Under the pieces are notes generated by a model. The model was not told where the DNA came from. It saw only the letters and a list, made by a program, of their open reading frames with translations, and ran no database searches. Source: a bacterium (GTDB lineage: Bacteria; Patescibacteriota; Patescibacteriia; S139-126). Taken from it: DNA of 57,450 bases. The stretch lies in the NCBI GenBank assembly GCA_030666865.1, contig DAOUWZ010000004.1, positions 1 through 57,450 of the forward strand, written 5' to 3'. Position 1 is the stretch's first letter. Each line of letters begins with the position of its first letter. Positions 5,542-56,692 of the stretch are shown here, in pieces. Both the position numbers and the translations under genes were made by a program.

Positions 5542-6786
5542 ATGAAATTTAATTTTAAAATAATAATACTAAGCCAATTAGTATTATTTAGTGCTTTATT
5601 TTTTTATATTGGGAATATTGAAGCAGCAACAACCTGTGAATCTTTGGGTGAAGGCTGGGAAGATGGTCCGTTATGCAATACGACTTGTGGTGATTTTAAT
5701 GATGAGTATGCTATTTCTTGCTACTGTGCTTTAAAATCTGGGCCAGACAAATGTTGTATGAAATATTTGGGCCAGTTGGGCGATTATGAATACGCGTGCA
5801 TAGATAATGAAGGAAATACTTTTATGTCTTCTGATAGAACTAGAGTAGAATTGGATTTTTCTTCTCCAGATCCAGATGTTATTTTTAAACCCTCAGTAAC
5901 TATTCCTGGCAGTATAAAAATTGGTGATAAAAATTTTACTTTAAAAAAAGGTGAAGGTATAAAAGTTGACGGTTTATTGATAGCTAAATATTTAGGCATT
6001 TTATTTAGATGGTTGGTTAGCGTAGTTGGAATTGTAGCTGTGTTATTTATTGCTTTTGCCGGATTACAATGGATTTCAGCTGCCGGAAACGCAGAGGTGA
6101 TAAATAAAGCTAAAAAAACTATGAAAGATTCATTGATTGGAGTTTTATTAGCCGTGGCTTCATATGCAATGCTTTATAATATAAATCCTAGTTTGGTTAA
6201 TTTTGGTAGTTTATCAGTTCCTAAAATTATACCGTTGCCTTTAGAAATAGTTGGCGATACAGCCATGTCTTTTACACCAAATTGTACGCCCCCAGCAAGT
6301 AAATTGACTGGTAATGAAGCTTTCACAGCCGCTCAATCGCAAGCAAGTGAACTAACTGGCAAAACAAGCTATATTTTAGGAGCTAAGGCTGGTTCGCCTT
6401 GCTATAATCATTCCAATGTGGATTTTTGTTTGGATTGTTCAGGATTTATCAGTTATATTTATTATTGTGGCGCTAGTCAAAAGGTGCCAGCAGGGACAGC
6501 TAATTTATTCAGCGATTCAGGGCAGCTAATTTATTTAAATAATAGGAGTGATCTTCAACCTGGTGATATTTTAGGATGGAAAGCCGGCGATGGGGGTAAA
6601 GAATTTGGGCATGTAGGTTTTTATGATGGTAGTTCAGTTATTCATACTGCTGGTCCGTCAGTAGAGAAATCGTCTGATTATGAAAATAGAGCTATTAGAG
6701 TAGAGTCGTTAGATGATTTTTTAGCTAAGTATGAAGAGGATAATGACATCCCTATTACTTATGCTAGATTTAAATTTATGGAGTAG
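5542..6786 (+). CDS. T4SS-pilin-like membrane hairpin fused to a C-terminal NlpC/P60 cysteine peptidase domain
   Basis: Signal peptide and a Cys-rich N-domain. Hairpin IVAVLFIAFAGLQWISAAGNAEVINKAKKTMKDSLIGVLLAVASYAML is paralogous to the one in 835-2253. NlpC/P60 signature: CLDCSGFISYIY ... GDILGW ... GHVGFYDG. Confidence 0.65.
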   Translation: MKFNFKIIILSQLVLFSALFFYIGNIEAATTCESLGEGWEDGPLCNTTCGDFNDEYAISCYCALKSGPDKCCMKYLGQLGDYEYACIDNEGNTFMSSDRTRVELDFSSPDPDVIFKPSVTIPGSIKIGDKNFTLKKGEGIKVDGLLIAKYLGILFRWLVSVVGIVAVLFIAFAGLQWISAAGNAEVINKAKKTMKDSLIGVLLAVASYAMLYNINPSLVNFGSLSVPKIIPLPLEIVGDTAMSFTPNCTPPASKLTGNEAFTAAQSQASELTGKTSYILGAKAGSPCYNHSNVDFCLDCSGFISYIYYCGASQKVPAGTANLFSDSGQLIYLNNRSDLQPGDILGWKAGDGGKEFGHVGFYDGSSVIHTAGPSVEKSSDYENRAIRVESLDDFLAKYEEDNDIPITYARFKFME

Positions 6787-6904
6787 CTGAAATAAATCTA
6801 AAAATGGTGAATAAAATTTATGAGCACAATAACAGTGTATAAAAATTTTATTTTAGTAAAAATAAAAGCTACGGGATATATACAAATTATTATTAGTTTA
6901 GCAA

Positions 6905-8257
6905 ATGAGTATAAATACAATTTTTGAGTGTTCAAAATGTGGTGCGCAAACTCCGGCTTGGGAGGGTCGATGTCGGGAGTGTGGCGCTTGGAGTACATTG
7001 CAAGAGGTTGGTGTGAAAAAAAATAACACTAGCAAAGGCGCTGAAACTCCTCTAAATGATAAGGAAATTTTAAATTTAAGTGAGATTGAAAGTGAAAAAA
7101 TACCTCGAGTAGTTTTGGGGGAGGTAGAGATAGATCGGGTGCTTGGTGGTGGGATTGTGCCTGGTTCTTTGATACTGCTTGGCGGTGATCCAGGAATAGG
7201 GAAATCAACTTTAGTTCTACATATTGCTGATTTATTAAATAAACAGCAAAAACAATTATTTTATATTTCTGGAGAAGAATCAGCTGGACAAATCAAAATG
7301 CGAGTTGACCGACTAGGACTAAATTTGAATCAAACAAAATTTATCAATCAAACTGAAACTGGGTTAATATGTGCAACTCTTGCCAAACATAAACCTAATG
7401 TAGTGATAATTGATTCTATTCAGACTATGTCTAGCGATGAAATAGCTGGTGAGATTGGCAGTGTATCACAAGTTCGAGCGGCAGCAGGCAGGTTTTTAGA
7501 AACAGCTAAACAAAATAATATTACTATTATCATAATTGGTCATGTCACTAAGGATGGGCAAGTGGCTGGTCCAAAAATGCTTGAACATTTGGTAGATACG
7601 GTTTTGTATTTGGAAGGTGAAAAAATAAATTCTTTTAGAATTTTAAGATCAGTAAAAAATAGATTTGGTTCAACTGGCGAAGTAGGTATTTTCCAGATGA
7701 ATGTTAAAGGGTTGATACCAGCAAAAAATGCCGCTGGAATATTTGTATCAGCCATTGACAAAGTGTCGCCAGGAATGGTTTTTTCTATCATTTGGGAAGG
7801 TTCTAGAGCTTTTGTAGTAGAATTACAAGTTTTGGCTAGTAAGACAGTTTTTGGCTATCCCAAAAGAACAGCGACTGGGTTTGATTTAAATCGGTTGCAA
7901 ATGTTATTGGCTGTACTGCAACAGCGCGCTGGAATAGTTTATTCTACTGATGATGTTTATGTCAATTTAGCAGGTGGTTTACAGGCTAAAGATTCTGGAC
8001 TTGATTTAGCTTTTTGTTTGGCAGCGCTATCTGCTAAAAAAAATAAGCCAATAGCAAAAGATACGGTTGTTTTTGGTGAGGTAAGCTTAACTGGGCAGAT
8101 TAAACCGGTTAATAATATGGATAAACGTATCAAAGAGGCTTTGCAACTTGGATATAAAAATTTAATTATTCCTCAAACTAAAAAGAAATTAACTAGCCAA
8201 AAAGCCAATATAGTCCAAGTTAGTGATATTAAGGAAATGGTGGATATTATCAAATAA
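6905..8257 (+). CDS. radA: DNA repair protein RadA/Sms
   Basis: N-terminal zinc finger (CSKCGAQTPAWEGRCRECGAW), Walker A (GGDPGIGKST), KNRFG motif and a Lon-like C-terminal domain. Confidence 0.95.
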   Translation: MSINTIFECSKCGAQTPAWEGRCRECGAWSTLQEVGVKKNNTSKGAETPLNDKEILNLSEIESEKIPRVVLGEVEIDRVLGGGIVPGSLILLGGDPGIGKSTLVLHIADLLNKQQKQLFYISGEESAGQIKMRVDRLGLNLNQTKFINQTETGLICATLAKHKPNVVIIDSIQTMSSDEIAGEIGSVSQVRAAAGRFLETAKQNNITIIIIGHVTKDGQVAGPKMLEHLVDTVLYLEGEKINSFRILRSVKNRFGSTGEVGIFQMNVKGLIPAKNAAGIFVSAIDKVSPGMVFSIIWEGSRAFVVELQVLASKTVFGYPKRTATGFDLNRLQMLLAVLQQRAGIVYSTDDVYVNLAGGLQAKDSGLDLAFCLAALSAKKNKPIAKDTVVFGEVSLTGQIKPVNNMDKRIKEALQLGYKNLIIPQTKKKLTSQKANIVQVSDIKEMVDIIK

Positions 8258-8274
8258 TAATAAATTTACTAAAA

Positions 8275-8931
8275 ATGAGGAGGGAGATTTTTTATCAAGG
8301 AGGGTTTTATCATATTTATAACCGCGGCGTTGATAAGCGGACAGTTTTTTGTGATGATAAAGATTATGAGAGATTTTTGTTGGGGTTAAATGTGTTTAAT
8401 CAAGTTGAATCGGTGGGTAATTTACGCGATTATATGAGGTTTCAGACATCCGATGTCCGGAGCTCCGGACATCGGATGTCTGAAAGAAAGCAACTAGTTG
8501 AGATAATCGTTTATTGTTTACTACCAAATCATTTTCATTTTATTTTGAAACAAATAGAGAAAGATGGGGTAAGTAAATTTATGCAAAAATTATCGAATGG
8601 TTATACTAAATATTTCAACACTAAATACCACCGTTCAGGAGTATTATTCCAAGGGAAATACAAAGTCAAGCATATTGATTCAGATGAATATTTACTTTGG
8701 CTATCTGCTTATATCAACGCCAATGCCGAAATACATAAAATAAAACCAGCTAATAAACATTGCTGGTCAAGCTACAGTAATTATGTTTTTGGTAAATCTG
8801 ATTTAGTGCCAGTGAATACCAGAATAGTGATGAGTAATTTTAGTAGTGGGGAAAATTATCAGAATTATTTGGATAAGATTATTCCGGTGTGGCAGGAACG
8901 AAAAGAGATAAAAGAATATATTATTGAATAA
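8275..8931 (+). CDS. IS200/IS605-type Y1 HUH transposase-like protein (REP-associated tyrosine transposase, RAYT-like)
   Basis: YHIYNRG N-terminal strand, HUH motif LLPNHFHFIL, GYTKYFN..RSG.LFQGKYK, and a catalytic-Tyr helix YINANAEIH. Single-copy gene without IS ends. Confidence 0.75.
   Translation: MRREIFYQGGFYHIYNRGVDKRTVFCDDKDYERFLLGLNVFNQVESVGNLRDYMRFQTSDVRSSGHRMSERKQLVEIIVYCLLPNHFHFILKQIEKDGVSKFMQKLSNGYTKYFNTKYHRSGVLFQGKYKVKHIDSDEYLLWLSAYINANAEIHKIKPANKHCWSSYSNYVFGKSDLVPVNTRIVMSNFSSGENYQNYLDKIIPVWQERKEIKEYIIE
8440..8485. repeat. P2-family perfect palindrome (46 bp) lying in frame inside the RAYT-like CDS
   Basis: TTTCAGACATCCGATGTCCGGAG|CTCCGGACATCGGATGTCTGAAA encodes FQTSDVRSSGHRMSE. 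Its 40-bp core is identical to the one at 20206-20245. Confidence 0.9.
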
Positions 8932-12237: not shown

Positions 12238-12364
12238 ACAATTATTATATCCTGAAATTTGATAAATAAAAATAACCTAATTAGTTGGTAGGTTTGAGAT
12301 GACGGTTTTTAGTTAGGGTTATTATTTATTTAATATTACAAAATAATGGTGTCTCCAGCAGGAA

Positions 12365-12388
12365 TCCCTGCCTACCGGCAGGCAGGGA
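12365..12388. repeat. P1-family GC palindrome (variant, 1 mismatch)
   Basis: TCCCTGCCTACCGGCAGGCAGGGA, just downstream of tRNA-Arg. Confidence 0.85.
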
Positions 12389-12420
12389 ACCTTAATTAAG
12401 AATTGTAAATTTTATTAGTT

Positions 12421-20198: not shown

Positions 20199-20252
20199 AA
20201 TAAAACAGACATCCGATGTCCGGAGCTCCGGACATCGGATGTCTGTTTTATT
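20199..20252. repeat. P2-family perfect palindrome (54 bp). Likely bidirectional terminator after lemA.
   Basis: AAATAAAACAGACATCCGATGTCCGGAG|CTCCGGACATCGGATGTCTGTTTTATTT. A/T runs flank both sides. Confidence 0.9.
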
Positions 20253-24142: not shown

Positions 24143-24212
24143 AGTTAGTTTTTAAATAGGCAGTATATAGAATTAAGAAATAAGGATACAGGTGAATTAT
24201 AAATCAGAAATC

Positions 24213-24257
24213 ACAAATTTTAAATTATACCTGCCTGCCGGCAGGCAGGAATCCTAA
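24213..24257 (+). repeat. 45-bp direct repeat (left copy), containing a P1 palindrome at 24230-24249
   Basis: ACAAATTTTAAATTATACCTGCCTGCCGGCAGGCAGGAATCCTAA is identical to 25575-25619. Confidence 0.9.
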
Positions 24258-24324
24258 ACAAGTATTAATATCAAAATCCAAAATTCAAAACTGATTTTTA
24301 TATTAACTAAGCTTGAGGGAAACT

Positions 24325-24354
24325 TTTTTAGGTTATAGGTTTTAGTTATTAGAA
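24325..24354 (+). repeat. 'Empty-site' fragment of the SR composite repeat (no P1 palindrome)
   Basis: TTTTTAGGTTATA|GGTTTTAGTTATTAGAA has the same flanks as 30736-30786, minus the 20-bp palindrome. Confidence 0.8.
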
Positions 24355-24378
24355 AGCGTTATATAAAATAAAATATAG

Positions 24379-24453: not shown

Positions 24454-25407
24454 CTATTTTATTAAAATCATTTTTTTGACCTGGCTATATCCAGATTGAG
24501 TTGTGAGTTTATAAAAATAGGTTCCGGATGACAAGTTTTGGCCATCAAATGAATAGTTGTAGCTGCCAATAGACAGTTTTTCATCAACCAGAGTAGCCAC
24601 AGTTTGACCTAAGATATTATAAACGGTCAGATTTACGAAATCGGCTTTGTTGATAGAAAAAACGATGTTAGTCGCCGGATTAAACGGATTAGGATAATTC
24701 TGATTGAGTATAAATGATTCTGGAATGCCTTTATAAAAAGGTGATATATGAGAAACTAGATCATCGCCTCCCATATAATCTAAGACACAAGAATCTTTTT
24801 GAGAATGGAATCGAATTTGATCACAGATATGTGATATAGTATCGGAATTACCACCATCTTGGTAAATGAACAGACTGTCAATATGGGTGATTACTGGAAG
24901 TGGATCATTGCCATTTAGATTTTTCCAGTTATGAAAATAAATCGTAGTTGTGTCATCTTGCTCCATTGATTGTCCATCAATAAAACCGTAGCTACCAGAG
25001 TAGTACATTTCACCTTTGTGGCGTATCCAGATTTGGAAAGAGTTTGACGGTGAGTCTGTTATCATTTTCAAATCTGCATAAAGCATTAAATTTGTCATCC
25101 AATCAGGAATTATTGCTTCAGTACTGTCGGTATAGTCTTTGTAATAGAATACATATTCAGATCCAGGTGTTGGGTCGTGAGTGAATTTTAAAGCTTCACT
25201 TTCGCTACCACTTAGACCACAGCACGGATTTATATAGGCCGAGTCGGGTAGCTGAATATTATACTCAAACCATGGAGTTGTTTCTGGGTAACATGGGACA
25301 TACCCCAGTATTGGTTGAAGATTTGTTGAAGTTGTTTGCGCAAAAGTTGTTCCCACCAATCCTGCGAAGAGCAGGATTACGCTTAAAAAAGTTAGATATT
25401 TTTTCAT
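24454..25407 (-). CDS. Secreted protein with a T9SS-type (Por_Secre_tail) C-terminal sorting domain
   Basis: Signal peptide ending TFAQ. C-terminal NYPNPFNPATNIVFSI...VYNILGQTVATLVDE...SGTYFYKLT...KKMILIK matches the type-A T9SS CTD pattern. SD GGGAGGA. Confidence 0.7.
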   Translation of the reverse strand: MKKYLTFLSVILLFAGLVGTTFAQTTSTNLQPILGYVPCYPETTPWFEYNIQLPDSAYINPCCGLSGSESEALKFTHDPTPGSEYVFYYKDYTDSTEAIIPDWMTNLMLYADLKMITDSPSNSFQIWIRHKGEMYYSGSYGFIDGQSMEQDDTTTIYFHNWKNLNGNDPLPVITHIDSLFIYQDGGNSDTISHICDQIRFHSQKDSCVLDYMGGDDLVSHISPFYKGIPESFILNQNYPNPFNPATNIVFSINKADFVNLTVYNILGQTVATLVDEKLSIGSYNYSFDGQNLSSGTYFYKLTTQSGYSQVKKMILIK

Positions 25408-25505: not shown

Positions 25506-25574
25506 GTCTAGGGAGTGGATATGCTGTGAATATTAGTATTTAGAAGTTAGTAGATAGGAGGAGGTAAATAAATT

Positions 25575-25619
25575 ACAAATTTTAAATTATACCTGCCTGC
25601 CGGCAGGCAGGAATCCTAA
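25575..25619 (+). repeat. 45-bp direct repeat (right copy), containing a P1 palindrome at 25592-25611
   Basis: Identical to 24213-24257. Confidence 0.9.
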
Positions 25620-25791
25620 GATCCTGGATAGCCCTACGCTTCGCTTCATTGCTTCTGGGATGACAGTAGAGAGGAAGGAATGACAAAAAGAGCACAAAAT
25701 TTTATTCTTCTATTTTATCACCCCCTATTAATTATACTTGATACCAGTTTATTTTAGCGTTATATTAAAAATATAAGTAATTACTAAACAA

Positions 25792-29843: not shown

Positions 29844-30368
29844 ATGTTTTTTAAAAATTTAGCTTTACCAATGAGAGCTCAACCTTTTCATATTGGTCAT
29901 GCTCGGTATATTAAGCAATTTAGTAAAATGTGTAACAGAGGTTTAATATTTTTATCTAAAGAATATGATTTAGAGGAAAATCCTTTTTTATACAAGACAA
30001 GGGAATTTTGGATTAATAAATTTTTGTCTGTTGAAAATATAAATAATATTTTAATTGCTAAGAGAGAGAAAAAGCTAGTTGATATATCAGGTAAATATGA
30101 AGAATATGTTAATTGTTTTGACACTACTGACTTTGTTGTTATCACCACTAACGAAACAGATAATATTTATAAATTGACAGGACTTCAAACATTCAATCAT
30201 CATGATCCTGATTTTGTAAAAGAAATTTGGGGAAAGAGTTTAGGACGCATTAAGTTATTTTCTACTGGAAGAATTATCAGAGAAAGATTAAAGAAAGATT
30301 TGGATTGTTCAGACTATTTAACACCCTTGGTATATAAAGAGGCTAGAATGGTTATGCAAAACATTTAA
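29844..30368 (+). CDS. HxGH nucleotidyltransferase (cytidylyltransferase superfamily, NadM-like)
   Basis: MRAQPFHIGH (RFQPxHxGH-type) and STGRIIR (ISSTxIR-type). Strong SD AGGAGGTG. Confidence 0.65.
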   Translation: MFFKNLALPMRAQPFHIGHARYIKQFSKMCNRGLIFLSKEYDLEENPFLYKTREFWINKFLSVENINNILIAKREKKLVDISGKYEEYVNCFDTTDFVVITTNETDNIYKLTGLQTFNHHDPDFVKEIWGKSLGRIKLFSTGRIIRERLKKDLDCSDYLTPLVYKEARMVMQNI

Positions 30369-30400
30369 TAACCCGTGAACACCCGGGTTATTTTTTATTT
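30369..30400 (+). terminator. Intrinsic terminator closing the five-gene island
   Basis: TAACCCG-loop-CGGGTTA followed by TTTTTTATTTT. Confidence 0.75.
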
Positions 30401-30458
30401 TATATTCTCCGATTGCTGTTGGATGGCTAAAGTGTTTTTTTGTATAATAATTATCTAC

Positions 30459-30516
30459 ATTAACATACCTACATCCGATGTCGGGATTTCCCGACATCGG
30501 ATGTAGGTATGTTAAT
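30459..30516. repeat. P2-family palindrome (58 bp, variant)
   Basis: ATTAACATACCTACATCCGATGTCGGGA-tt-TCCCGACATCGGATGTAGGTATGTTAAT. It shares the ACATCCGATGTCSGGA core with 8440-8485 and 20199-20252. Confidence 0.9.
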
Positions 30517-30660
30517 AGTTTTTTTGAATTTGATAAAATTATATCTTGACATTATTTTTTGTTATGATATTCTATTATTACATATAAAAAAGAGCAAAGC
30601 TCTAGTATGTATGCCGGTTAGCGTAAATTAGAATATAGGCGGCATTCAGAATCAATAAGG

Positions 30661-30696
30661 AATTACTTATTTAATTACGTAATTAAATAAGTAATT
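30661..30696. repeat. Perfect 36-bp AT-rich palindrome
   Basis: AATTACTTATTTAATTAC|GTAATTAAATAAGTAATT, nested in a longer CAATAAGG/CCTTATTG stem. Confidence 0.9.
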
Positions 30697-30730
30697 AAAT
30701 AAAAACCCTTATTGATTGAGGGATTTTTTA

Positions 30731-30858
30731 ATTAGTTTTTAGGTTATACCTGCCTGCCGGCAGGCAGGGGTTTTAGTTATTAGAAGATGAGAATTATTAA
30801 ATCTACAACCTGAAAACTAGCAACTAACAACTATAACCTAAAAACTAACAACTATTCT
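30731..30858 (+). repeat. SR composite repeat, copy A (P1 palindrome at 30749-30768), ending at the rpsL ATG
   Basis: A 55-nt block (30734-30788) is identical to 31290-31344. A 31-nt block (30824-30854) is identical to 31373-31403. Confidence 0.9.
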
Positions 30859-31284
30859 ATGCCTACAATTAATCAATTATTGAAAAAACCAAGGAAATCA
30901 AAGCATAAAAAGTCTAATAGTCCGGCTATTCAGACTGTTTTTAATGTGCTGAAAAGAAGACGGACGACTTTGCCAAAAGGAGCAGGTTTTAAACGCGGAG
31001 TATGTTTGAAAGTAACCACTACTACGCCAAAAAAACCAAATTCTGCTTTGCGGAAGATTGCCAGAGTTAGACTTTCAAATGGCATGGAAGTGACCGCTTA
31101 TATTCCAGGTATGGGTCATAATTTACAAGAACATAGTGTTGTTTTGGTTAGAGGCGGTCGGGTTAGCGATTTGCCTGGTGTGCGTTATAAGGTTGTCAGA
31201 GGGGTGTATGATGCTCAAGGCGTTGAAGGTAGAATGCAAAGCCGGTCTCGGTATGGCACTAAAAAGCCAAAAGCGAAGAAATAA
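30859..31284 (+). CDS. rpsL: 30S ribosomal protein S12
   Basis: [12 protein letters not shown]...[10 protein letters not shown]...[18 protein letters not shown]. Confidence 0.97.
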
Positions 31285-31287
31285 TTA

Positions 31288-31407
31288 TCAGTTTTTAGGT
31301 TATACCTGCCTGCCGGCAGGCAGGGGTTTTAGTTATTAGAAGATTAAAGTTATTTAACCTACAACCTAAAGACTAACAACTATAACCTAAAAACTAACAA
31401 CTAATAT
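31288..31407 (+). repeat. SR composite repeat, copy B (P1 palindrome at 31305-31324), filling the rpsL-rpsG spacer
   Basis: See copy A. Confidence 0.9.
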
Positions 31408-31887
31408 ATGAGAGGAAAAAGAGCGCCAAAAAGAAAAATAATTCCAGATCCAAAATATAATTCAATTTTGGTTGCGAAGTTTATTAACCAAATAATGAGA
31501 AATGGTAAGAAAACATTAGCTCAAAAAATAGTTTATCAATGTTTTGATATGCTTCAAGAAAAAACCAAACAAAAATCAGTTGAAGTTTTTGAGAAATCAC
31601 TTAGAAATATTGCGCCGTCAGTAGAAGTTAAGGGTCGTCGGATCGGCGGAGCTAATTATCAGGTTCCGATTCCAGTTACTGGAGATAGAAAAAATACCTT
31701 AGCTTTTAGGTGGCTTATTGAAGCTGCTAAAAATAAAAAAGGCAAATCAATGGCTGAAAAATTGGCTAATGAATTGTTATTAGCTTTGAATAATGAAGGT
31801 GATACTATCAAAAAGAAACAGGATGTACAGCGTATGGCTGAATCAAATAGAGCATTTGCTCATTTTGCAAATTATAAGAGAAGATAA
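31408..31887 (+). CDS. rpsG: 30S ribosomal protein S7
   Basis: Conserved S7 sequence (PDPKYNS..VAKFIN..MRNGKK, VEVKGRRIGGANYQVP). Confidence 0.97.
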   Translation: MRGKRAPKRKIIPDPKYNSILVAKFINQIMRNGKKTLAQKIVYQCFDMLQEKTKQKSVEVFEKSLRNIAPSVEVKGRRIGGANYQVPIPVTGDRKNTLAFRWLIEAAKNKKGKSMAEKLANELLLALNNEGDTIKKKQDVQRMAESNRAFAHFANYKRR

Positions 31888-32008
31888 GTCAGGTTATACC
31901 TACCTGCCGGCAGGCAGGGGTTTTAGTTATTGAAAGACTGAGAATTATTAAACCTACAATCTAAAAATTATTAACTAACAACTACAACCTAAAAACTAAC
32001 AACTAACT
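31888..32008 (+). repeat. SR composite repeat, copy C (P1 variant at 31899-31918, 1 mismatch), filling the rpsG-fusA spacer
   Basis: Same architecture as copies A and B. Confidence 0.85.
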
Positions 32009-34090
32009 ATGGCACGAGAATATTCTTTAGAAAAAACAAGAAATATCGGTATTATCGCTCATATTGATGCTGGAAAAACAACCGTAACAGAGCGGGTTTT
32101 GTATTATACTGGTAAAAAACATAAAATTGGCGAAGTTCATGATGGCGAAGCAGAAATGGATTGGATGGAGCAAGAACAAGAAAGAGGAATTACCATTACC
32201 TCGGCTGCGACTACATGTTTTTGGAAAGATTATCGTTTTAATATCATTGATACCCCAGGTCATGTAGATTTTACTGCTGAGGTAGAAAGAAGTTTGCGGG
32301 TATTGGATGGCGGGGTTGTTATTTTTGATGGAGTAGCTGGTGTAGAATCGCAATCAGAAACAGTTTGGCGGCAAGCTGACAAATATCAAGTTCCGAGAAT
32401 TGCATTTATAAATAAAATGGATAGAATGGGAGCTGATTTTTATTTTGATATGGATACTATTCATCAGCGGTTGACCAAAGACGCTTATCCGATCCAACTT
32501 CCCATTGGGGCAGCTGAAACTTTTCAAGGCGTAGTTGATTTGATAGAACAAAAAGCTTATTATTATCAAGATGATCTTGGAGTTAAGATTGAAGAAAAAG
32601 AAGTTCCAGCAGAATTATCAGAAAAAGTCGAAGAATATCGATCAAAAATGATTGAGGCTATTGTAGAAAATGATGAAGAATTAATGCATAAATATTTAGA
32701 AGGAGAAAATATTTCCGTTGACGAACTTAAGGGGGCGCTTAGAAAAGGTGTTATTGCAAATAGTATTGTTCCTGTTTTATGCGGGTCAGCTTTGAAAAAT
32801 AAAGGAGTGCAGTTATTACTTGATGCGGTTAATTATTATCTACCGTCTCCGGTTGATATTGACCCGCCAGTTGGTCATGATCCAGAAGATGAAAAAAAGG
32901 AAATACCTTTGCAAGTTGGCGATGATCAACCAGTAGTTGGTTTGGCTTTCAAAGTAGCCACTGATCCATATGTAGGTCGGTTGACATTTTATCGGGTTTA
33001 TTCTGGAACTTTAAAATCAGGTAGTTATTTGATTAACAATACCAATGGTACTAAAGAGAGAGTCAGTCGACTGTTGCGGATGCATGCTAATCACCGTGAA
33101 GACGTAGATGAAATATATGCCGGAGAGATTGCTGCGATAGTTGGTTTGAAAAAAACTACTACTGGAGATACTTTATCTGATGCTAGTTTACCAATCAATT
33201 TGGAAAAGATTGATTTTCCAGATCCAGTTATTTCTATTGCCGTTGAACCAAAAACAAAACAAGATCAAGAAAAAATGGGTCTAGCTCTGCAAAGATTGGC
33301 TGAAGAAGATCCAACTTTCAGAGTTAAAACTGATGAAGAAACTGGGCAGGTAATTATTTCTGGTATGGGCGAGCTTCATTTGGATATTATTATTGATCGG
33401 ATGAGAAGAGAATTTAGTGTTGAGGCTAATATTGGTGAACCACAAGTAGCTTATAAAGAAACCATTCGAAAAACAGCAGAAGCAGAAGGAAAATATATTC
33501 GTCAATCTGGTGGACGCGGTCAGTACGGCCATTGTTTACTCCGAATTGAACCAAATGGAGATGGTAAGGGTTATGAATTTAATGATAAAATAAAAGGCGG
33601 CACTATTCCCAAAGAATATATTCCAGCAATTGATAAAGGTATTAAAGAAGCAATGGAAAATGGTGTTTTGGCAGGTTATCCAATACTTGATATTAAAGTG
33701 ACGGTATATGACGGTTCGTTTCATGAAGTTGATTCCTCAGAATCAGCCTTTAAAATTGCTGGTTCCAAAGCATTCCAGGCAGCTTTCAAAAAAGCTGGTC
33801 CAGTATTGCTTGAACCAATTGAAAAAATCGAAGTAGTTGTACCGGAAGAATTTATGGGTGATGTTATTGGCGATTTAAATTCAAAAAGAGGTCAGATAAT
33901 TGAAATGAATGATCGAGGTAAAAATAAGGTAATTGAAGCTAATGTCCCACTTGCTTCAATGTTTGGCTATGTAACTACCTTGCGTTCTATGACTCAAGGC
34001 CGAGGAACTTCCACAATGGAATTTGATCATTTTGCCGATGTTCCAAACAATGTTGCTAAAGATATTATTGAAGGCAAAGAAGCGAAGTAG
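32009..34090 (+). CDS. fusA: Elongation factor G
   Basis: G1 [22 protein letters not shown] and full-length EF-G domains. Confidence 0.97.
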
Positions 34091-34183
34091 GTTACAGTTG
34101 TCAGGTTATAGGTTTTAGGAATTATTTAATTTTCTAATACCTATGAACCAAAACCTACAACCTAATAACTAACAACTAAATTT
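34091..34183 (+). repeat. SR composite repeat, copy D (lacks the P1 palindrome: CAGGTTATA|GGTTTTAG)
   Basis: Same arms and the same G-poor right half (AACCTACAACCTAATAACTAACAACTAA) as copies A-C. Confidence 0.75.
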
Positions 34184-34498
34184 ATGTCACAATGGTCAGA
34201 CATAATTAGCACAGTAAAAAAAATAAATAGAGAAGTAATTATAATAGATGGCGATAAGACTTTTGTGGTAATGGATTTGGCTAAATATGATGAATTGTTA
34301 TCAAAAGAGGATATTTTGGATATGAATGAGGATGAATTTTTAAACGAGATTAATAGACAAGTAGCAGTTTGGAAGTTAAATCATGAGCAGGATCAAGAAA
34401 CAGCAGTGGCTTCTAGTATAGAAACAGCTAATGATAAAGAGTATCAGAAAGATAAAAATAGTGATGATGATACTTTTTATATCGAACCAGTAGAATAG
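34184..34498 (+). CDS. Hypothetical acidic protein with a Phd/YefM-like N-terminal segment
   Basis: REVIIIDGDKTFVVMDLAKYDELL resembles the antitoxin beta-alpha core. Acidic tail. No adjacent toxin ORF. Confidence 0.35.
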   Translation: MSQWSDIISTVKKINREVIIIDGDKTFVVMDLAKYDELLSKEDILDMNEDEFLNEINRQVAVWKLNHEQDQETAVASSIETANDKEYQKDKNSDDDTFYIEPVE

Positions 34499-34637
34499 TA
34501 GATTTGTGGTGTAATTGATTTTGTTATAAAACATTTCCACATGTTTTCAAGGGTAAGTATTACAATTTGGTAGATTTGGCTAATTTTAGCAAAAAAATAA
34601 AATATTTTTAGTAAAAATAGTGAATTATTAAGACTAC

Positions 34638-34666
34638 TTGCTATTATTAAAAAATTTTGTTATAAT
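34638..34666 (+). promoter_or_regulatory. Sigma70 promoter (TTGCTA-N17-TATAAT) dedicated to tuf
   Basis: TTGCTA at 34638-34643 and TATAAT at 34661-34666. The leader to the tuf ATG is about 110 nt. Confidence 0.6.
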
Positions 34667-34784
34667 CACCAAGCATAATTATTGAATAATATAAGTTTAA
34701 ATTAATAAAATATTAACGACTGGGTAAAACCCTTACTTTTTGTTTAGAGTAATTGGGGTCGTTGATTCTAAAGGAAATAAAAAT

Positions 34785-35975
34785 ATGGCAGAACAGTTTG
34801 ATCGCTCAAAAGAGCATGTTAATGTAGGTACAATTGGTCACGTTGATCATGGTAAAACTACATTGACAGCAGCTATCTTAAAGACATTAAGTACAAAAGG
34901 TAAAGCTGCCCAAGATAAATCAGTAGATCAGATTGATAACGCTCCAGAAGAGAAAGAGCGTGGTATTACTATTGCTACTGCTCATGTGGAGTATGAGTCA
35001 GATAAACGTCATTATGCTCATGTAGATTGTCCTGGGCATGCTGATTATGTAAAAAATATGATTACTGGTGCCGCTCAAATGGACGGTGCTATTTTAGTAG
35101 TCGCAGCAACTGATGGCCCTATGCCTCAGACAAGAGAACATATTTTACTTGCTAAACAAGTAGGTGTTCCTTACATTGTGGTCTTTTTAAATAAAATTGA
35201 TCAGGTTGATGACCCAGAGTTAATTGATTTGGTTGAAGAAGAAGTTAGAGATTTGTTGAAAAAATATGAATTCCCAGGAGATAAAACTCCGATTATTAGA
35301 GGCAGTGCTTTGAAAGCTTTGGAAAATTCAAATGATGAAGAAGCAACTAAGCCAATCATGGAATTGATTGATGCTTTGGATAATTATGTGCCAACTCCAG
35401 TCAGGGATGTTGATAAGGCATTTTTAATGCCTGTTGAAGATATTTTTTCAATTGAAGGTAGGGGAACTGTGGTTACAGGCAGAATTGAAAGAGGTATTGT
35501 AAATGTTGGGGAAGAAATTGAAATAGTTGGTATTAGAGATACTCAAAAAACAATAGTTACAGGTGTAGAGATGTTTAACAAGACTTTAGATCAGGGTCAG
35601 GCTGGTGACAATGCCGGTATTTTACTCAGAGGTACCAAAAAAGAAGAAGTTGAAAGAGGACAAGTTTTATGTAAGCCTGGCAGTATTACTCCTCATACTG
35701 AAATTGAAGCTGAAGTTTATATTTTATCCAAAGAAGAAGGTGGTAGGCACACTCCGTTTTTTAATGGTTATAAACCACAGTTTTATATTCGTACCACAGA
35801 TGTTACTGGTGATGTAATCTTACCAGAAGGTACTGAAATGGTAATGCCTGGTGATACTGTTAATTTGAAAATTAAATTGATTGTACCGGTTGCTCTTGAA
35901 GAAAAACAAAGATTTGCTATCCGTGAAGGCGGTAGGACAGTAGGTGCTGGTGCTGTGACCAAGATTGTTAAATAA
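34785..35975 (+). CDS. tuf: Elongation factor Tu
   Basis: The ATG at 34785 gives the canonical [26 protein letters not shown]. The track start at 34740 is an upstream TTG. Confidence 0.97.
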
Positions 35976-37543: not shown

Positions 37544-37634
37544 AGTAATTAAGTTTTAGACATTTGAATTTAGATATTAGAATTTAGGATTTATTAAAGT
37601 GTTTATACTATATATTAACCACTAGATACTATTT

Positions 37635-39583: not shown

Positions 39584-39609
39584 ACTAGTATATTGTATAT
39601 AGTAGATAG

Positions 39610-39629
39610 CCTGCCTGCCGGCAGGCAGG
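39610..39629. repeat. P1-family 20-bp GC palindrome in the rplB-rpsS spacer
   Basis: CCTGCCTGCCGGCAGGCAGG, exact. Confidence 0.95.
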
Positions 39630-39713
39630 TATGTAGCAAAAATATGAACAGTGAAGACAAACTAATCTTATATACTACCTATATACTATATACTAAATAC
39701 TAAATACAAAAAT

Positions 39714-42551: not shown

Positions 42552-42715
42552 TAGACTTGTTATGTAATTATTTTTTACTATAATTCCCAAATTTTGGTCA
42601 AATTATTCAAAAATTTTTTCAGCTTAAGCTTCTAGCTAAACTTCAAAAATTGTTTGAAAAATTATAACTCAAAATTTGAAAATTTAGCTACAAAACTAAT
42701 TACATAACAAGTCTA
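42552..42715. mobile_element. MITE-like element with perfect 19-bp terminal inverted repeats, filling the rplN-rplX spacer
   Basis: The left TIR TAGACTTGTTATGTAATTA (42552-42570) starts immediately after the rplN TAG stop. The right TIR TAATTACATAACAAGTCTA (42697-42715) is its exact reverse complement. The interior has no ORF. Confidence 0.5.
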
Positions 42716-42731
42716 ATAAGATTATAAATAT

Positions 42732-47439: not shown

Positions 47440-47644
47440 TAGCATGAAATTCTAAATACAAATTTTTAAATCCTAAACAAATTTTAAATAGCAAATCCAA
47501 ATTACCAAAATAATTTCGGATTTAAAGCATTTGAATTTTGGTATTGTTTAAAATTTAGTATTTCTCATTTTGGATTTATTATTAATTTATTTGAGCGTGT
47601 CAAAAAACAAGATTTTTAAGTTGATTAGTATTTAGGTAATGTTT

Positions 47645-47675
47645 CCCGCAATTAAGGCGGGTTTGTTTATTTTTT
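47645..47675 (+). terminator. Intrinsic terminator candidate after secY
   Basis: CCCGC-loop-GCGGG followed by TTTGTTTATTTTTT. Confidence 0.6.
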
Positions 47676-47723
47676 GCCAAAATTGAGATAGAATAATAAT
47701 AAGATAATAATTTATAGTTTTTT

Positions 47724-49128: not shown

Positions 49129-49146
49129 GTTAGTGTTTAGTTGTTA

Positions 49147-49206
49147 CCTGCCTGCTCCTCGAGTCTGAGCCCGAGGCTCACCTTAGAGCGATGACCGGTA
49201 GGCAGG
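49147..49206. repeat. P1-like stem (CCTGCCTGC/ACCGGTAGGCAGG) enclosing a ~40-nt loop that carries its own hairpin
   Basis: CCTGCCTGC-TCCTCGAGTCTGAGCCCGAGGCTCACCTTAGAGCGATG-ACCGGTAGGCAGG. Confidence 0.7.
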
Positions 49207-49297
49207 GATTGTAGTTTTTAGATAGTGGTAGTTTATTTACCTCGCCATTAAACAAGTAATCACTAAAAATTACAAACTAATACCTAAAAACTAGTTT

Positions 49298-52482: not shown

Positions 52483-52754
52483 AAGAAAGTATTATGTATC
52501 AAGTATTATGTATTAAGTATTAATACAAAAATCAAAAGTTTGGTACAATATTAATAATTTCTAATTACTCTAATTATATTAATTTCTAACTAAATCCCAA
52601 ATAATAAAAGTTTTTTAAGTTTTTAGTCATTGCAAATTAATTGGTATTTGTTTAGGTCAATTAGGTTAATTAGAAATTAGGCTAATTATTTTTGTTTTAT
52701 ATTTTACATTATCAATTATCATTTTGATTTTTGAATTATATCTAACACTTAATA

Positions 52755-53051: not shown

Positions 53052-53056
53052 AGATT

Positions 53057-53116
53057 AGTTGTTAGTGATTAGGTTATAGTTGTTAGTGATTAGGTTATAG
53101 TTGTTAGTGATTAGGA
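53057..53116 (-). repeat. 21-bp tandem repeat (2.9 copies), part of an SR-like element between dnaB and ybaB
   Basis: AGTTGTTAGTGATTAGGTTAT occurs twice, followed by an 18-nt partial copy. The complementary G-poor arm (ACCTATCACCTACAACCTATAACC) follows at 53129-53152. Confidence 0.9.
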
Positions 53117-53151
53117 ATTTTATCTAAAACCTATCACCTACAACCTATAAC

Positions 53152-54528
53152 CTAGAATTGTGGTTCTGGCATTGGGGTTGTATTTTTAGCTTTATTTTCA
53201 AATCTGACTTTTTCTTCATTAAAAATAAGTTCAATCTTGCCAGTTGGTCCGTTTCTGTGTTTAGCTATGAATATTTCAGCAATATTTCTGCGATCAGGAT
53301 CAGTTTCTTCTCGTTTATACATATATTCCCTATAAATAAACACAACAATATCTGCATCTTGTTCAATAGAACCAGATTCTCGTAAGTGAGCGAGTTTTGG
53401 AATAGGGGGTTTTTCAAGTTCAACTGCACGGGAAAGTTGAGAAAGGGCAAGTACTGGTATATTTAGTTCGCGAGCTAAAGCTTTTAAAGCCCTGGTAATT
53501 TCAGCTACTTCTTGGACGCGGTTATCACTATTTTTTGATCGACCTTCCATCAATTGCAAATAGTCAACAACTATTAGCTCAAGTCCGTGTTCGCTTTTTA
53601 GTCTTCTGGCTTTAGTTCTCAGTTCCATTATATTTGATGAAGCGGAATCGTCAATAAATATTGGCGCTTCGGAAAGCGTGGCCATAGCATGACCAATGCG
53701 AGGAAAATCATTATCAGTTTCTCGGTCAGATAAGCGGCCAGTTCGCATTTTCCATAAATCAACTCCAGCTTCAGCGCAAAGCATACGGTCAACCAATTGT
53801 TCTTTACTCATTTCCAATGAAAAAATTCCGACTGGATGTTTATTTTTGCCGATCAGCCTGGCAATATCAAGGGCTAAAGTAGTTTTACCCATTGACGGTC
53901 GGGCTGCCAATATTATTAAGTCTGATTTTTGCAAGCCAGCCAGTTTATTATCCAGATCATAAAAACCGGTTGGCACACCTCTGATTTTTCCGCCTTCCTT
54001 ATGTAATTCGTCAATTCTTTCAAAAGTATCATCTAAAACAGATTTAACAGGAATAAAATTTTGCTTTAAATGTTTCTGGGAAATTTGAAATATTTTTTGT
54101 TCAGCTTGATCAAGCAGGGCATCAACTTTTTCTTCTTCGCTGAATCCCAATGAAGTTATTTCCTGAGCTGCAATTATCATTTTTCTAAGCGCTGCTTTTT
54201 TCTGGATAATATTGGCATAAGAGACAATATTTGAAGAAGTAACCACGGCGTTAGTCAGTTCTGTTAGGTAAGTCCGGCCGCCAATTTTTTCCAGAATTTT
54301 TTTCTCAGTCAGTCGATTGGTCAAACTAAGCAGATCAATTGGTTCTCTTTCTGAATATAATTCCAACATTAGTTCAAAAATATTTTGATGAGATTCTTTA
54401 TAAAAATCTTCAGTAGAGATAGTGTCAGCGATTTTTGATATCGCATCGGAATCAATTAAAATAGAGCCCAAAACATTAGTTTCAGCCTCCAGATTTTGTG
54501 GTGGTAATTTTTCAATATTATTACTCAT
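53152..54528 (-). CDS. dnaB: Replicative DNA helicase DnaB
   Basis: PPQNLEAETNVLGSIL, Walker A ARPSMGKTT and the RecA-like C-terminal domain. Confidence 0.95.
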   Translation of the reverse strand: MSNNIEKLPPQNLEAETNVLGSILIDSDAISKIADTISTEDFYKESHQNIFELMLELYSEREPIDLLSLTNRLTEKKILEKIGGRTYLTELTNAVVTSSNIVSYANIIQKKAALRKMIIAAQEITSLGFSEEEKVDALLDQAEQKIFQISQKHLKQNFIPVKSVLDDTFERIDELHKEGGKIRGVPTGFYDLDNKLAGLQKSDLIILAARPSMGKTTLALDIARLIGKNKHPVGIFSLEMSKEQLVDRMLCAEAGVDLWKMRTGRLSDRETDNDFPRIGHAMATLSEAPIFIDDSASSNIMELRTKARRLKSEHGLELIVVDYLQLMEGRSKNSDNRVQEVAEITRALKALARELNIPVLALSQLSRAVELEKPPIPKLAHLRESGSIEQDADIVVFIYREYMYKREETDPDRRNIAEIFIAKHRNGPTGKIELIFNEEKVRFENKAKNTTPMPEPQF

Positions 54529-55921: not shown

Positions 55922-55997
55922 TGGGCCGTTAGCTCAGTTGGTAGAGCGCCAGGCTTTTAACCTGGGCGTCACAGGTTCGAATCCTGTACGGCCCACC
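55922..55997 (+). tRNA. tRNA-Lys (anticodon UUU)
   Basis: Acceptor GGGCCGT/ACGGCCC, anticodon arm CCAGG-CTTTTAA-CCTGG, T arm ACAGG-TTCGAAT-CCTGT, encoded CCA. Confidence 0.9.
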
Positions 55998-56004
55998 ATA
56001 AAAA

Positions 56005-56041
56005 AGTTTGTTCATCACCTAGTGGTGTGCAAACTTTTTTT
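56005..56041 (+). terminator. Intrinsic terminator after tRNA-Lys
   Basis: GTTTG...CAAAC stem with an inner CACC/GGTG pairing, followed by TTTTTTTT. Confidence 0.65.
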
Positions 56042-56184
56042 ATTTTGATTGTTTCAGGATTCGAACGGGCAGGAGCGAGTATTGAGCAGAGCGAAATAAA
56101 CGAGCGACGACCAAAGCGAGTAAGCGTAGCTTTGGGCGCTGCCCAGTACAACGAAGTTGAGTGAAGCGAAACGAGGCGGAAATC

Positions 56185-56204
56185 CCTGCCTGCCGGCAGG
56201 CAGG
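56185..56204. repeat. P1-family 20-bp GC palindrome interrupting a duplicated tRNA-Lys 3' end
   Basis: CCTGCCTGCCGGCAGGCAGG, exact, flanked by GAAATC| and |CTGTACGGCCCACCAT. Confidence 0.95.
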
Positions 56205-56220
56205 CTGTACGGCCCACCAT
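56205..56220 (+). repeat. 16-nt direct repeat of the tRNA-Lys 3' end
   Basis: CTGTACGGCCCACCAT is identical to 55983-55998. Confidence 0.9.
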
Positions 56221-56351
56221 TCGACTCGCTCCTATAAGGAGTTCGCTCATGGTCTGCAGCACTAACATGCTTTTGACCACTCTCATTTATTATCTTCGCG
56301 AGTCGAATGCCCTGAGCCTGCCGAAGGGCAAATTTAAAAATCTCTTAACCT

Positions 56352-56624
56352 ATAAAATACTTTGCATATTTAGCACGCTGTAATGATGAATCTTTATATA
56401 TTGGTTCTTGTACTAACATTGAAGCTAGAGAAATAAAAGACAATAAAGGTGAAGGTGCTCAGTATACAAAACAAAGACAACCTACAAAAATAATATATTT
56501 TGAAAAGTTTGATAGTTTGGTTGAAGCTACTAGACGAGAGAAACAAATTAAAGGATGGATTTGTGAAAAGAAAGAAAATTTAGTGAAGTATGGTCATCCG
56601 ACAAAATTTAGTAATAGTTATTAA
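56352..56624 (+). pseudogene. GIY-YIG nuclease family (UPF0213/YhbQ-like) ORF with ATA where the start codon is expected
   Basis: The in-frame translation is (I)KYFAYLARCNDESLYIGSCTNIEAREIKDNKGEGAQYTKQRQPTKIIYFEKFDSLVEATRREKQIKGWICEKKENL. A TAA lies 2 codons upstream, and no ATG/GTG/TTG is available. Confidence 0.6.
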
Positions 56625-56657
56625 TGCCTTTATTTAAGGTGTTTTTTGTTTAGGGTG
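56625..56657 (+). terminator. Weak intrinsic terminator inside a 31-nt repeat module
   Basis: CCTT-TATTT-AAGG followed by TGTTTTTTG. The module CCTTTATTTAAGGTGTTTTTTGTTTAGGGTG recurs at 57279-57309 with 1 mismatch. Confidence 0.5.
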
Positions 56658-56692
56658 TTTGGGTCGTTTGAATTTTTTGATATAATAATTAT

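Follow-up and report, generated by a model that had tools for sequence, protein, structure and literature searches.

What fills the long spacers of the str operon in contig DAOUWZ010000004.1 (assembly GCA_030666865.1), and what might it do for the genes that it separates? In this 57,450-nt stretch of DNA from a Patescibacterium (hereafter the window), rpsL, rpsG, fusA and a 104-aa open reading frame (ORF; orf104) are preceded by spacers of 128, 123, 121 and 93 nt, respectively. We found one homologous module in all four. Each spacer is an inverted repeat of degenerate 7-nt tandem repeats that reaches from stop to start: a GT-rich array begins next to the upstream stop codon, and a complementary, G-free array at the other end stops 3-5 nt before the ATG. 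Our tentative reading, to which we give a probability of roughly 45%, is that the module forms a hairpin whose G-free arm would be a Shine-Dalgarno (SD)-independent ribosome landing pad, unmasked by translation of the upstream gene.

Anatomy and copies of the spacer module

The build of the spacers was derived from their sequence, from repeat families and from alignments of the copies, which we call A (before rpsL), B (rpsL-rpsG), C (rpsG-fusA) and D (fusA-orf104); a fifth close copy, E, fills the dnaB-ybaB spacer (Table 1). The GT-rich array begins 0-6 nt past the upstream stop codon, namely 5 nt after the rpsL stop, directly after the rpsG stop and at the fusA stop; elsewhere in the window it overlaps the dnaB stop and begins 1-2 nt after the rplB stop. 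Its vocabulary (TAGGTTATAGGTTTTAGTTATTAG) is the reverse complement of the G-free heptamers, whose units are AACTAAC, AACCTAA and AACTATA and which are complementary to the GT array. In A and B, AGTTTTTAGGTTATA (30734-30748 and 31290-31304) is the perfect complement of TATAACCTAAAAACT (30832-30846 and 31381-31395). Tandem Repeats Finder (TRF) detected period-7 arrays, with periods 14, 21 and 28 as well, in every G-free arm (30815-30854, 5.7 copies of AACTAAC; 31366-31404, 5.6 copies; 31950-32007, 8.1 copies; 34157-34179, 3.1 copies) and a period of 21 nt at 53056-53115 (2.9 copies, 100% match). A sequence-only reading made earlier had proposed that the spacers before rpsL, rpsG, fusA and orf104 (93-128 nt) hold the same module and that its two arms are complementary; both proposals are confirmed, and the gene coordinates that it gave are correct.

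A right end of ~40 nt is common to A-D and to the dnaB-ybaB copy and reads ACTAACAACTAYAACCTAAnnACTAACAACTAA, followed by 2-4 nt and TATG. In all five close copies AACAACTA precedes TATG at the constant spacing of 3-5 nt. The core 12-mer AACTAACAACTA occurs 11 times with at most one mismatch, against 0.52 occurrences expected in the window. Two blocks are identical in A and B, one of 55 nt and one of 32 nt (given as 31 nt before), and A, B and C, which lie within 1.2 kb, look like the outcome of local duplication or gene conversion. None of A-E is flanked by a target duplication; their left ends differ from copy to copy, and the right end runs to 3-5 nt before the ATG.

A covariance model built on these five copies recovered four further ones, before rpsS, before ruvX, before recG (partial) and at 25527-25627, all sense to the downstream gene; the rpsS and ruvX copies were outside the training set. 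The same vocabulary had been noted before ybaB and ruvX from the letters alone, and the model agrees, with a clear copy at ybaB (92 bits) and a diverged one at ruvX (55 bits). Heptamer arrays of unrelated units are scattered over the intergenic regions of the window (TRF), and among the units in its spacers are AATACTT (52487-52523) and TTTAGAA (37555-37593). Long spacers (91-284 nt) are also found in ribosomal-protein and neighboring operons (37544-37634, 42552-42731, 47440-47723 and 52483-52754). These consist of heptamer arrays (TTTAGAA, 5.6 copies; AAGTATT, 5.3 copies) or of single, almost perfect hairpins that extend from the stop codon up to ~16 nt short of the ATG; the single long hairpin at 42552-42731 (-45 kcal/mol) is an example.

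SD-like motifs are present at ~8 of the 60 ORF starts in the window, and ~85% of the starts are without one. The final ~55 nt before each ATG had been described as containing 0-2 G and no SD. This stands: 2, 1, 0 and 1 G were counted in the 50 nt that precede the four ATGs, an SD motif is missing from each, and none was seen in positions -22 to -1 of rpsL, rpsG, fusA, orf104, ybaB, rpsS or ruvX. The same description had set these genes against four others in the window with strong SDs. Those SDs are real; the contrast, however, is not, as genes with an SD are the minority and SD-lessness is the genome norm, which rules it out as a special feature of the str operon. What the module does supply, as had been suggested, is a G-free leader that runs without a start codon up to the ATG: its G-free arm is devoid of AUG, GUG, UUG and SD-like sites and has UAA in all three frames.

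Copy A had been taken for an intercistronic spacer like the others. It is instead the last 128 nt of a 490-nt region that contains a terminator and the likely operon promoter. This candidate lies ~160 nt upstream of module A, after the palindromic terminator at 30468-30507 (repeat family D6), and is likely to be the str promoter, as judged by consensus match only. The rpsL leader upstream of module A (30575-30730) contains nested palindromes, with a perfect 36-nt palindrome AATTACTTATTTAATTACGTAATTAAATAAGTAATT between TCAATAAGG and CCTTATTGA and a terminator-like stem followed by a U-run at 30706-30722; no Rfam family matched. From their sequence, these palindromes may form an attenuator.

Table 1. 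Genes, spacer modules and palindromic elements in the window.
Feature	Position	Strand	Details
rpsL	30859-31284	+	ORF; stop 31282-31284
rpsG	31408-31887	+	ORF; stop 31885-31887
fusA	32009-34090	+	ORF; stop TAG 34088-34090
orf104 (104 aa)	34184-34498	+	ORF
Likely str-operon promoter	30546-30573	+	TTGACA-16 nt-TATTCT with upstream TG; best match in 30300-34800, 10/12
Module A, before rpsL	30734-30858	+	Covariance model 153.6 bits; outer GT arm 30734-30748; palindrome 30749-30768; inner GT arm 30769-30786; G-free array 30815-30854 (outer CA arm 30832-30846); TTCT; ATG 30859
Module B, rpsL-rpsG spacer	31285-31407	+	Sequence, alignment, TRF; outer GT arm 31290-31304; palindrome 31305-31324; inner GT arm 31325-31342; G-free array 31356-31404 (21-nt period, 2.1 copies); ATG 31408
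Module C, rpsG-fusA spacer	31888-32008	+	Covariance model 138 bits; truncated GT arm 31888-31898; palindrome variant CCTACCTGCCGGCAGGCAGG 31899-31918; inner GT arm 31919-31936; G-free array 31950-32007; ATG 32009
Module D, fusA-orf104 spacer	34091-34183	+	Covariance model 63 bits; without palindrome; GT arm 34091-34119; G-free array 34139-34179; ATG 34184
Module E, dnaB-ybaB spacer	53052-53151	-	Covariance model 91.9 bits; Pfam DnaB, YbaB; without palindrome; GT arm overlaps dnaB stop 53152-53154; G-free array of 3 perfect 21-nt units, end ATCT-ATG
rplB-rpsS spacer, three-way architecture with other heptamers	39584-39713	+	Covariance model 43.8 bits, E = 3e-7; GT array TAGTATA 39586-39609; palindrome 39610-39629; G-free array CTAAATA 39679-39711; ATG 39714
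ruvX spacer, diverged copy	49129-49297	+	Covariance model 55.1 bits, E = 9e-10; RuvX by Pfam; outer GT arm directly past stop, palindrome-like GC stem with extra insert, inner GT arm, G-poor arm; ATG 49298
tRNA gene-recG, partial copy	12276-12402	-	Covariance model 37.5 bits; RecG; palindrome variant 12367-12386; G-poor array AACCCTAACTAAAAACC...AACCTACCAACTAA ~44 nt upstream of recG ATG
20-nt palindrome, copies in modules	12367-12386, 30749-30768, 31305-31324, 31899-31918, 39610-39629
20-nt palindrome, copies outside the module	24230-24249, 25592-25611, 56185-56204		Flanks different each time
Orphan empty site	24322-24355	+	TTTTTTAGGTTATA joined to GGTTTTAGTTATTAGAAA; A/B 5' arm minus exactly the 20-nt palindrome
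RAYT-like Y1 (IS200-type) transposase gene	8275-8931	+	Pfam Y1_Tnp 35.2 bits, cut-off 23

Heptamer arrays in other genomes

In genome and metagenome collections we found no relative above ~65% S7 identity, with the exception of one fragment (76%). The best S7 matches (58-65% identity) belong to metagenome-assembled genomes (MAGs) of Patescibacteria/Parcubacteria, some of which carry the mislabel Gammaproteobacteria. In related Patescibacteria rpsL, rpsG and fusA are also SD-less, and their spacers measure 2-16 nt. Some relatives have repeat-built, G-poor fusA leaders, a few of them with GC hairpins (L001 and L002, with ACTTTAA units, L085 and L041), and others have none; the Parcubacteria MAG L041 shows the heptamer vocabulary as well as the architecture before fusA. 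As to conservation beyond the window, on which the sequence-only reading had staked its module, the vocabulary recurs across phyla; the whole module was not found in these searches, and both of its components were.

The array pattern ACTAACAACTA-N2-12-ACTAACAACTA was found at no fewer than 120 loci. The hosts listed are Cyanobacteria, Bacteroidota, Acidobacteriota, Planctomycetota, Desulfobacterota and unclassified MAGs, and the arrays are mostly (ACTAACA)n. Starts of ORFs of 100 aa or more lie no further than 30 nt downstream of the array on the CA strand at 30 of the 120 listed loci and on the GT strand at 3. A complementary array within 200 nt lies upstream in 41 of 112 listed arrays and downstream in 4. 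The genes downstream of arrays in these other phyla are functionally diverse.

Two of the matching genomes carry arrangements that bear on the module. In the Bacteroidota MAG L167 (200-317), the rpsG-fusA spacer consists of a GT arm past the S7 stop, a loop and ACTAACAACTATAAACTAACAACTATCAACTAAACAAA joined to the ATG of EF-G, and it scores 43.6 bits with the covariance model. Although the phylum is a different one, layout and ACTAACAACTA words are those of spacer C, owing to either convergence or horizontal transfer. The Parcubacteria MAG L077 (4030-4240, minus strand) has a tRNA gene between a 5' G-free array, AACCTAAAAACTAACAACTAACCACTAACAACTA, and a 3' complementary GT array. Its polarity is opposite to that of the window modules, i.e. 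the rarer order of CA then GT, and rpmG starts 16 nt past the GT arm. By analogy, the arrangement resembles a processing stem of the rRNA type.

Heptamer repeats at start codons are a known kind of element, and an unexplained one. TAACTGA heptamers occur as direct repeats in marine Beggiatoaceae, Cyanobacteria and Bacteroidetes (MacGregor 2015, PMC4679880). They are mostly forward and a few nt from start codons, where a ribosome-binding site is rare, and they are also found within ribosomal-protein operons and before fusA; their function is unknown, and binding of S1, Csp or CsrA and translational regulation have been suggested (PMC4679880). The window arrays are alike in being tandem 7-nt units, forward, near start codons without a ribosome-binding site and in ribosomal-protein operons including fusA, and in a patchy cross-phylum spread over SD-poor lineages. 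They differ in their units, AACTAAC/AACCTAA, which are G-free, and in their host, a Patescibacterium. Whereas the TAACTGA repeats of that paper are essentially direct, with one indirect, the arrays here are paired with a complementary GT array as a stop-to-start hairpin and have a palindromic micro-element inserted in them. Compared by sequence, the module is a related kind, not the TAACTGA repeat itself. What is new is the Patescibacterial host, the stop-to-start hairpin, the recurrence of the same words at rpsG-fusA in another phylum, and the cross-phylum 20-nt micro-element described below.

Cyanobacteria also have the STRR sequences, which Mazel reportedly described in 1990. Heptanucleotide units dominate the long simple sequence repeats (SSRs) of bacteria, according to the summary of Mrazek 2007 in PMC4679880. 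The window shares with both the intergenic period-7 arrays, the several unrelated units per genome and presumed slippage. The descriptions of heptanucleotide SSRs and STRRs are, however, compositional and statistical, whereas the arrays here have a fixed position at the start codon, inverted pairing and a conserved 40-nt right end. ERIC/IRU and Correia (NEMIS) elements are imperfect palindromes of ~100-150 bp in transcribed intergenic regions. The module (~95-130 nt) resembles them as a whole-element hairpin that lies between operon cistrons and would be expected to be transcribed and to affect mRNA processing or stability. It has no sequence relation to them, and its arms are low-complexity heptamers with strong GT/CA asymmetry; unlike these miniature inverted-repeat transposable elements, it has no defined terminal inverted repeats with target duplication and keeps a constant register with the start codon.

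A 20-nt palindrome in the GT arrays

In the C-poor arm as the sequence-only reading had written it, an ellipsis stood in place of a perfect 20-nt GC palindrome, CCTGCCTGCCGGCAGGCAGG. Eight copies are present in the window and none is expected; 5 of the 8 lie outside the str spacers, in unrelated flanks. A 50-nt unit is common to 24208-24257 and 25570-25619 (repeat family D4). Aligned with the 5' arm of A and B, the orphan site at 24322-24355 shows a clean gap of 20 nt and no target duplication; it is located in a convergent intergenic region and has neither a G-free partner nor a downstream start. Modules D and ybaB have the same uninterrupted GGTTATA/GGTTTTA junction as this empty site, and in D, CAGGTTATA runs straight into GGTTTTAGG at the exact position of the palindrome in A-C. 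Together, the empty site and the D/ybaB junction indicate that the palindrome was inserted into a pre-existing GT array; by sequence comparison it is demonstrably a discrete insertion. The suggestion that the module could be a mobile unit thus finds support for the palindrome and none for the whole ~125-nt unit, which lacks target duplications and defined ends.

Among the matches listed, the exact 20-mer occurs in at least 120 loci from at least six phyla. The hosts include many classes of the candidate phyla radiation (CPR), Omnitrophota, Bacteroidota (cultured isolates too), Planctomycetota, Bdellovibrionota and Desulfobacterota. The listed settings are intergenic DNA, other heptamer arrays (L320, L352 and L371) and the vicinity of 5' tRNA fragments (L285, L307 and L355). 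In 14 of the 125 listed cases the palindrome lies inside a long open frame and is read as LPAGRQ or PACRQAG, for example in FtsK of L283 (LPAGRQ). Direct repeats of at least 6 nt between the 20-nt flanks of listed copies are four times commoner than in shuffled pairings, and in three listed cases exact 7-nt repeats abut the palindrome. Over 123 copies, A at -1 and T at +1 are slightly favored in the flanks, which have no tetranucleotide tag of the GTAG/CGTC type. No inverted doublets were seen among the eight window copies, and two copies were present in 5 of 120 external loci.

A sequencing or adaptor artefact is ruled out, as the same loci were recovered in three independent studies, variants and an empty site exist, and cultured-isolate genomes contain the palindrome. 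It was also considered as an interruption of tRNA genes and rejected: in-silico excision restored an ARAGORN-detectable tRNA at 1 of the 120 listed loci, and most tRNA-adjacent cases are 5' tRNA fragments, not simple insertions. Searches of the open-access literature for the palindrome sequence gave no relevant occurrence, and those for intergenic repeats or SD usage in the CPR likewise returned nothing relevant.

REP palindromes have a conserved GTAG or CGTC tag at one end, as given in an excerpt of PMC3733652, and REP/REPIN elements are mobilised by RAYT transposases (Bertels and Rainey 2011, PMC3116915). The 20-nt palindrome is similar to REP/REPIN elements and to the small dispersed repeats (SDRs) of Nostoc in being short, GC-rich, hairpin-forming, multi-copy and precisely inserted, often inside heptamer arrays, and the window encodes a RAYT-like Y1 transposase. 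SDRs are reportedly ~21-27 nt long, with precise insertion and with filled and empty sites (ascribed to Elhai, 2008); the clean 20-nt indel between A/B and 24322-24355 is comparable in size and behavior. REPs and SDRs are lineage-specific, whereas the palindrome is identical across at least six phyla; it also differs from REP/REPIN elements in having no GTAG/CGTC tag, no doublets, no placement on either side of the RAYT gene, and in-frame coding copies elsewhere.

By sequence similarity, the transposase is a candidate mobiliser of palindromic repeats. The gene is not flanked by the 20-nt palindrome and contains a different palindrome of 40 nt, and co-location in other genomes was not found: only 1 of the 120 palindrome loci listed has a homolog within 8 kb. 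The 40-nt perfect palindrome CAGACATCCGATGTCCGGAGCTCCGGACATCGGATGTCTG lies in frame in the transposase gene (8443-8482) and belongs to a second palindromic repeat family (D6). An identical copy lies at 20206-20245, and the terminator-like site before the str promoter, 30468-30507, is an 80% variant of it. The 20-nt palindrome also has a copy in a GC-rich stretch at 55996-56692, behind a tRNA gene and ahead of an ORF that by eye resembles the C-terminal part of a GIY-YIG nuclease; this is possibly a gene disrupted by inserted material.

Proposed coupled initiation and alternative readings

How could such a spacer have arisen and act? The heptamer arrays may have arisen through slippage; the palindrome would have been inserted later, possibly via the RAYT-like transposase, and the unit then copied between neighboring spacers by duplication or gene conversion. 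In a largely SD-independent genome ribosomes would land on the G-free arm. Lack of G keeps this arm from folding on itself, and since it also lacks AUG, GUG and UUG and carries UAA in all frames, the authentic AUG would be the sole start in an open stretch. On the mRNA, the GT arm would mask the G-free arm. A ribosome terminating 0-6 nt upstream would cover the first 10-15 nt of the GT arm and melt the outer stem, and exposure of the leader would couple initiation at the next cistron to translation of the previous one over a gap of 93-123 nt. In A-C, the hairpin of the palindrome with its U-rich tail GGUUUUAGUU, which is called terminator-like on the sense strand only, may in addition stabilise the 3' end of the upstream cistron or act as a leaky terminator after it. 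Coupling by unmasking is known from the coat and replicase genes of RNA phage MS2 and from E. coli rpmI-rplT. There, too, a masked downstream initiation region is opened by upstream ribosomes, an analogy of mechanism only; the masking partner here differs in being a non-coding repeat array just past the stop codon.

The predicted folds give this hairpin its shape. Compared with shuffled sequences, A (-41 kcal/mol, z = -5.9) and B (-38.1 kcal/mol, z = -4.9) fold into a three-way junction of an outer GT/CA stem, a GC hairpin and an inner AU/GU hairpin. The same topology is predicted at rplB-rpsS (-35.7 kcal/mol) and ruvX (-50.6 kcal/mol), from different or diverged arms; retention of the architecture with different arms is likewise what a DNA palindrome predicts. 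In Rfam, the window yielded only three tRNAs at the gathering threshold, and a permissive scan gave only sub-threshold miRNA-like hairpins. Among the 23 consensus pairs of the five paralogs, 22 show no compensatory change (they are invariant, one-sided, broken or gapped) and one shows a double change. Sequestration of the start-proximal leader, as proposed earlier, is therefore structurally possible; support from strand specificity or covariation was not obtained.

Several results weigh against an unmasked landing pad. C (-24.3 kcal/mol, z = -1.6) and D (z = -2.4) fold more weakly, and the antisense strand of the spacers folds equally well or better, which rules out sense-specific RNA folding: when both strands fold equally, the complementarity is that of a DNA-level inverted repeat and not evidence of a sense RNA. 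Invariant pairs are uninformative, as a DNA-level palindrome without RNA function gives the same result. We also dropped the orientation of the whole hairpin as evidence, because an inverted repeat of GT then CA has the same polarity on both strands and the sense orientation of the window hairpins is thus not independent evidence; what is informative instead is the statistics of the arrays and how rare the order of CA then GT is. Among relatives whose S7 is 58-76% identical, spacers of 2-16 nt are the usual case, so that the module is dispensable. The stop-to-start geometry is trivial if an element was inserted into a short spacer, and the near-identity of A and B fits recent selfish spread or gene conversion equally well. 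Finally, we infer masking, coupling and stabilisation alike from the sequence.

Many of these points are also met if the module is selfish or neutral DNA in tolerant spacers and purifying selection keeps only the G-free orientation near starts, where an array in the GT orientation would bring in start codons, SD-like sites and structure. Relatives dispense with it, its folding is strand-symmetric and without covariation, and A and B hardly differ; the module is a point at which assemblies break, parts of it recur on many other contigs, heptamer arrays of several unrelated units are scattered in intergenic regions, the palindrome is also located in coding sequences and by tRNA fragments in other genomes, and an orphan arm lies in a convergent intergenic region. 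Neutral accumulation alone would hardly place the same heptamer vocabulary at rpsG-fusA in different phyla, however, and the 10:1 forward bias within 30 nt of starts among the matches listed, the constant spacing of AACAACTA to the ATG in five copies, and the location inside the most highly expressed operons, where junk is costliest, all speak for more than tolerance. We regard this explanation as somewhat unlikely. It is rather improbable, in our view, that the G-free array is the binding site of a trans-acting RNA-binder (S1, a cold-shock-domain protein or another) and the genes behind it a post-transcriptional regulon. One heptamer family is indeed reused before rpsL, rpsG, fusA, orf104 and ybaB and occurs in the Parcubacteria MAG L077 and across phyla, its 7-nt periodicity would suit multi-domain single-strand binders, and the hypothesis has been stated for the TAACTGA repeats (PMC4679880). 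Yet CTAAATA at rpsS, AATACTT at 52487-52523 and TTTAGAA at 37555-37593 stand in the same architecture, which argues against one sequence-specific reader, and the functional diversity of the downstream genes in other phyla does not suggest a regulon.

Could the spacers instead punctuate the transcript, as RNase III-type processing sites or leaky intrinsic terminators that set the levels of S12, S7 and EF-G? Correia and ERIC elements are processed when transcribed. Stems of 14-30 bp span the whole spacers, the GC hairpin with GGTTTTAGTT is terminator-like in A-C, and in L077 a tRNA gene lies between the arms as it would in a processing stem. The U-tract, however, is short and broken up, and 5 of the 8 palindrome copies have none; D, ybaB and other hairpins have no GC stem, and the stems are AU/GU-rich and bulged. 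We consider punctuation improbable. A Rho utilisation (rut) site in the C-rich, G-free arm was down-weighted, since the arrays are abundant in cyanobacteria, which, as an excerpt of PMC12642595 has it, lack Rho. A ribosomal-protein autoregulatory leader, for instance an S7 operator in the rpsL-rpsG spacer that mimics the 16S rRNA site, is extremely improbable. The precedent is E. coli, in which S7 acts on the rpsL-rpsG intercistronic region; here the module precedes four str-region genes as well as ybaB, ruvX and recG, a distribution that all but rules the operator out, no Rfam match was obtained even at permissive thresholds, and close relatives lack the module.

The landing-pad reading can be widened beyond this genome, to G-free (A/C)AACT(A/C)A-type arrays as an SD-independent initiation device that SD-poor Patescibacteria, Bacteroidota, Cyanobacteria and Beggiatoaceae would share, often masked by a complementary upstream array in a hairpin that couples neighboring cistrons, and recurring at rpsG-fusA, and to the palindrome as an ultra-small mobile element; we think this combination doubtful. 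The palindrome would be kept identical in at least 120 species of at least six phyla and would insert into heptamer arrays, by tRNA fragments and in frame as LPAGRQ, and its insertion or excision could seed 7-nt duplications that feed the arrays. For much of the bacterial tree, with Bacteroidota, Cyanobacteria and many CPR lineages among it, start choice without an SD is an open question. A G-free, start-codon-less, stop-rich leader in constant register with the ATG is a testable candidate signal for it; such leaders occur in operons of the highest expression and in more than one SD-poor phylum, and the inverted partner array points to a simple mode of coupling between cistrons that lie far apart. 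The module also shows how slippage-prone heptamers and a 20-nt palindromic element remodel the operons of minimal genomes; the identity of this element in distant phyla points either to very active horizontal spread or to a conserved host function.

The repeats also affect assembly. Identical sequence is present in contigs of marine-sediment and cold-seep metagenomes from three studies, and assemblies from the three studies end exactly inside the module repeat; many further contigs share parts of it, and the genome holds more module copies than the window displays. Such breaks of short-read assemblies inside ribosomal-protein operons bear on MAG completeness and on the recovery of phylogenomic markers. 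Look-up of exact proteins returned only identical contigs from three sediment/seep samples, with zero differences and no strain variation; RNA runs with the locus were looked for and none was found. Contigs of three metagenomes (X1-X3) join 31329 to 31365 and omit 35 nt (5 x 7) at about single-copy depth, which is probably another genomic paralog with a shorter loop and not variation at the locus.

The window has a G+C content of 33% and contains ribosomal-protein operons of the str, S10 and spc types. orf104, which has no Pfam hit, is located between fusA and tuf, and its N-terminus looks like a Phd/YefM antitoxin by eye only; weakly similar small ORFs occupy this position in related Patescibacteria (L003, 7267-7740; L004, 6743-7033; L001, ~6774-6966). 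tuf has a promoter-like site of its own at 34638-34666. On the minus strand, 24454-25407 encodes a 317-aa protein with the type IX secretion C-terminal sorting domain Por_Secre_tail (45 bits). This domain typifies Bacteroidota, and a Patescibacterium would not be expected to have it; its presence and the shared repeats hint at gene flow with Bacteroidota.

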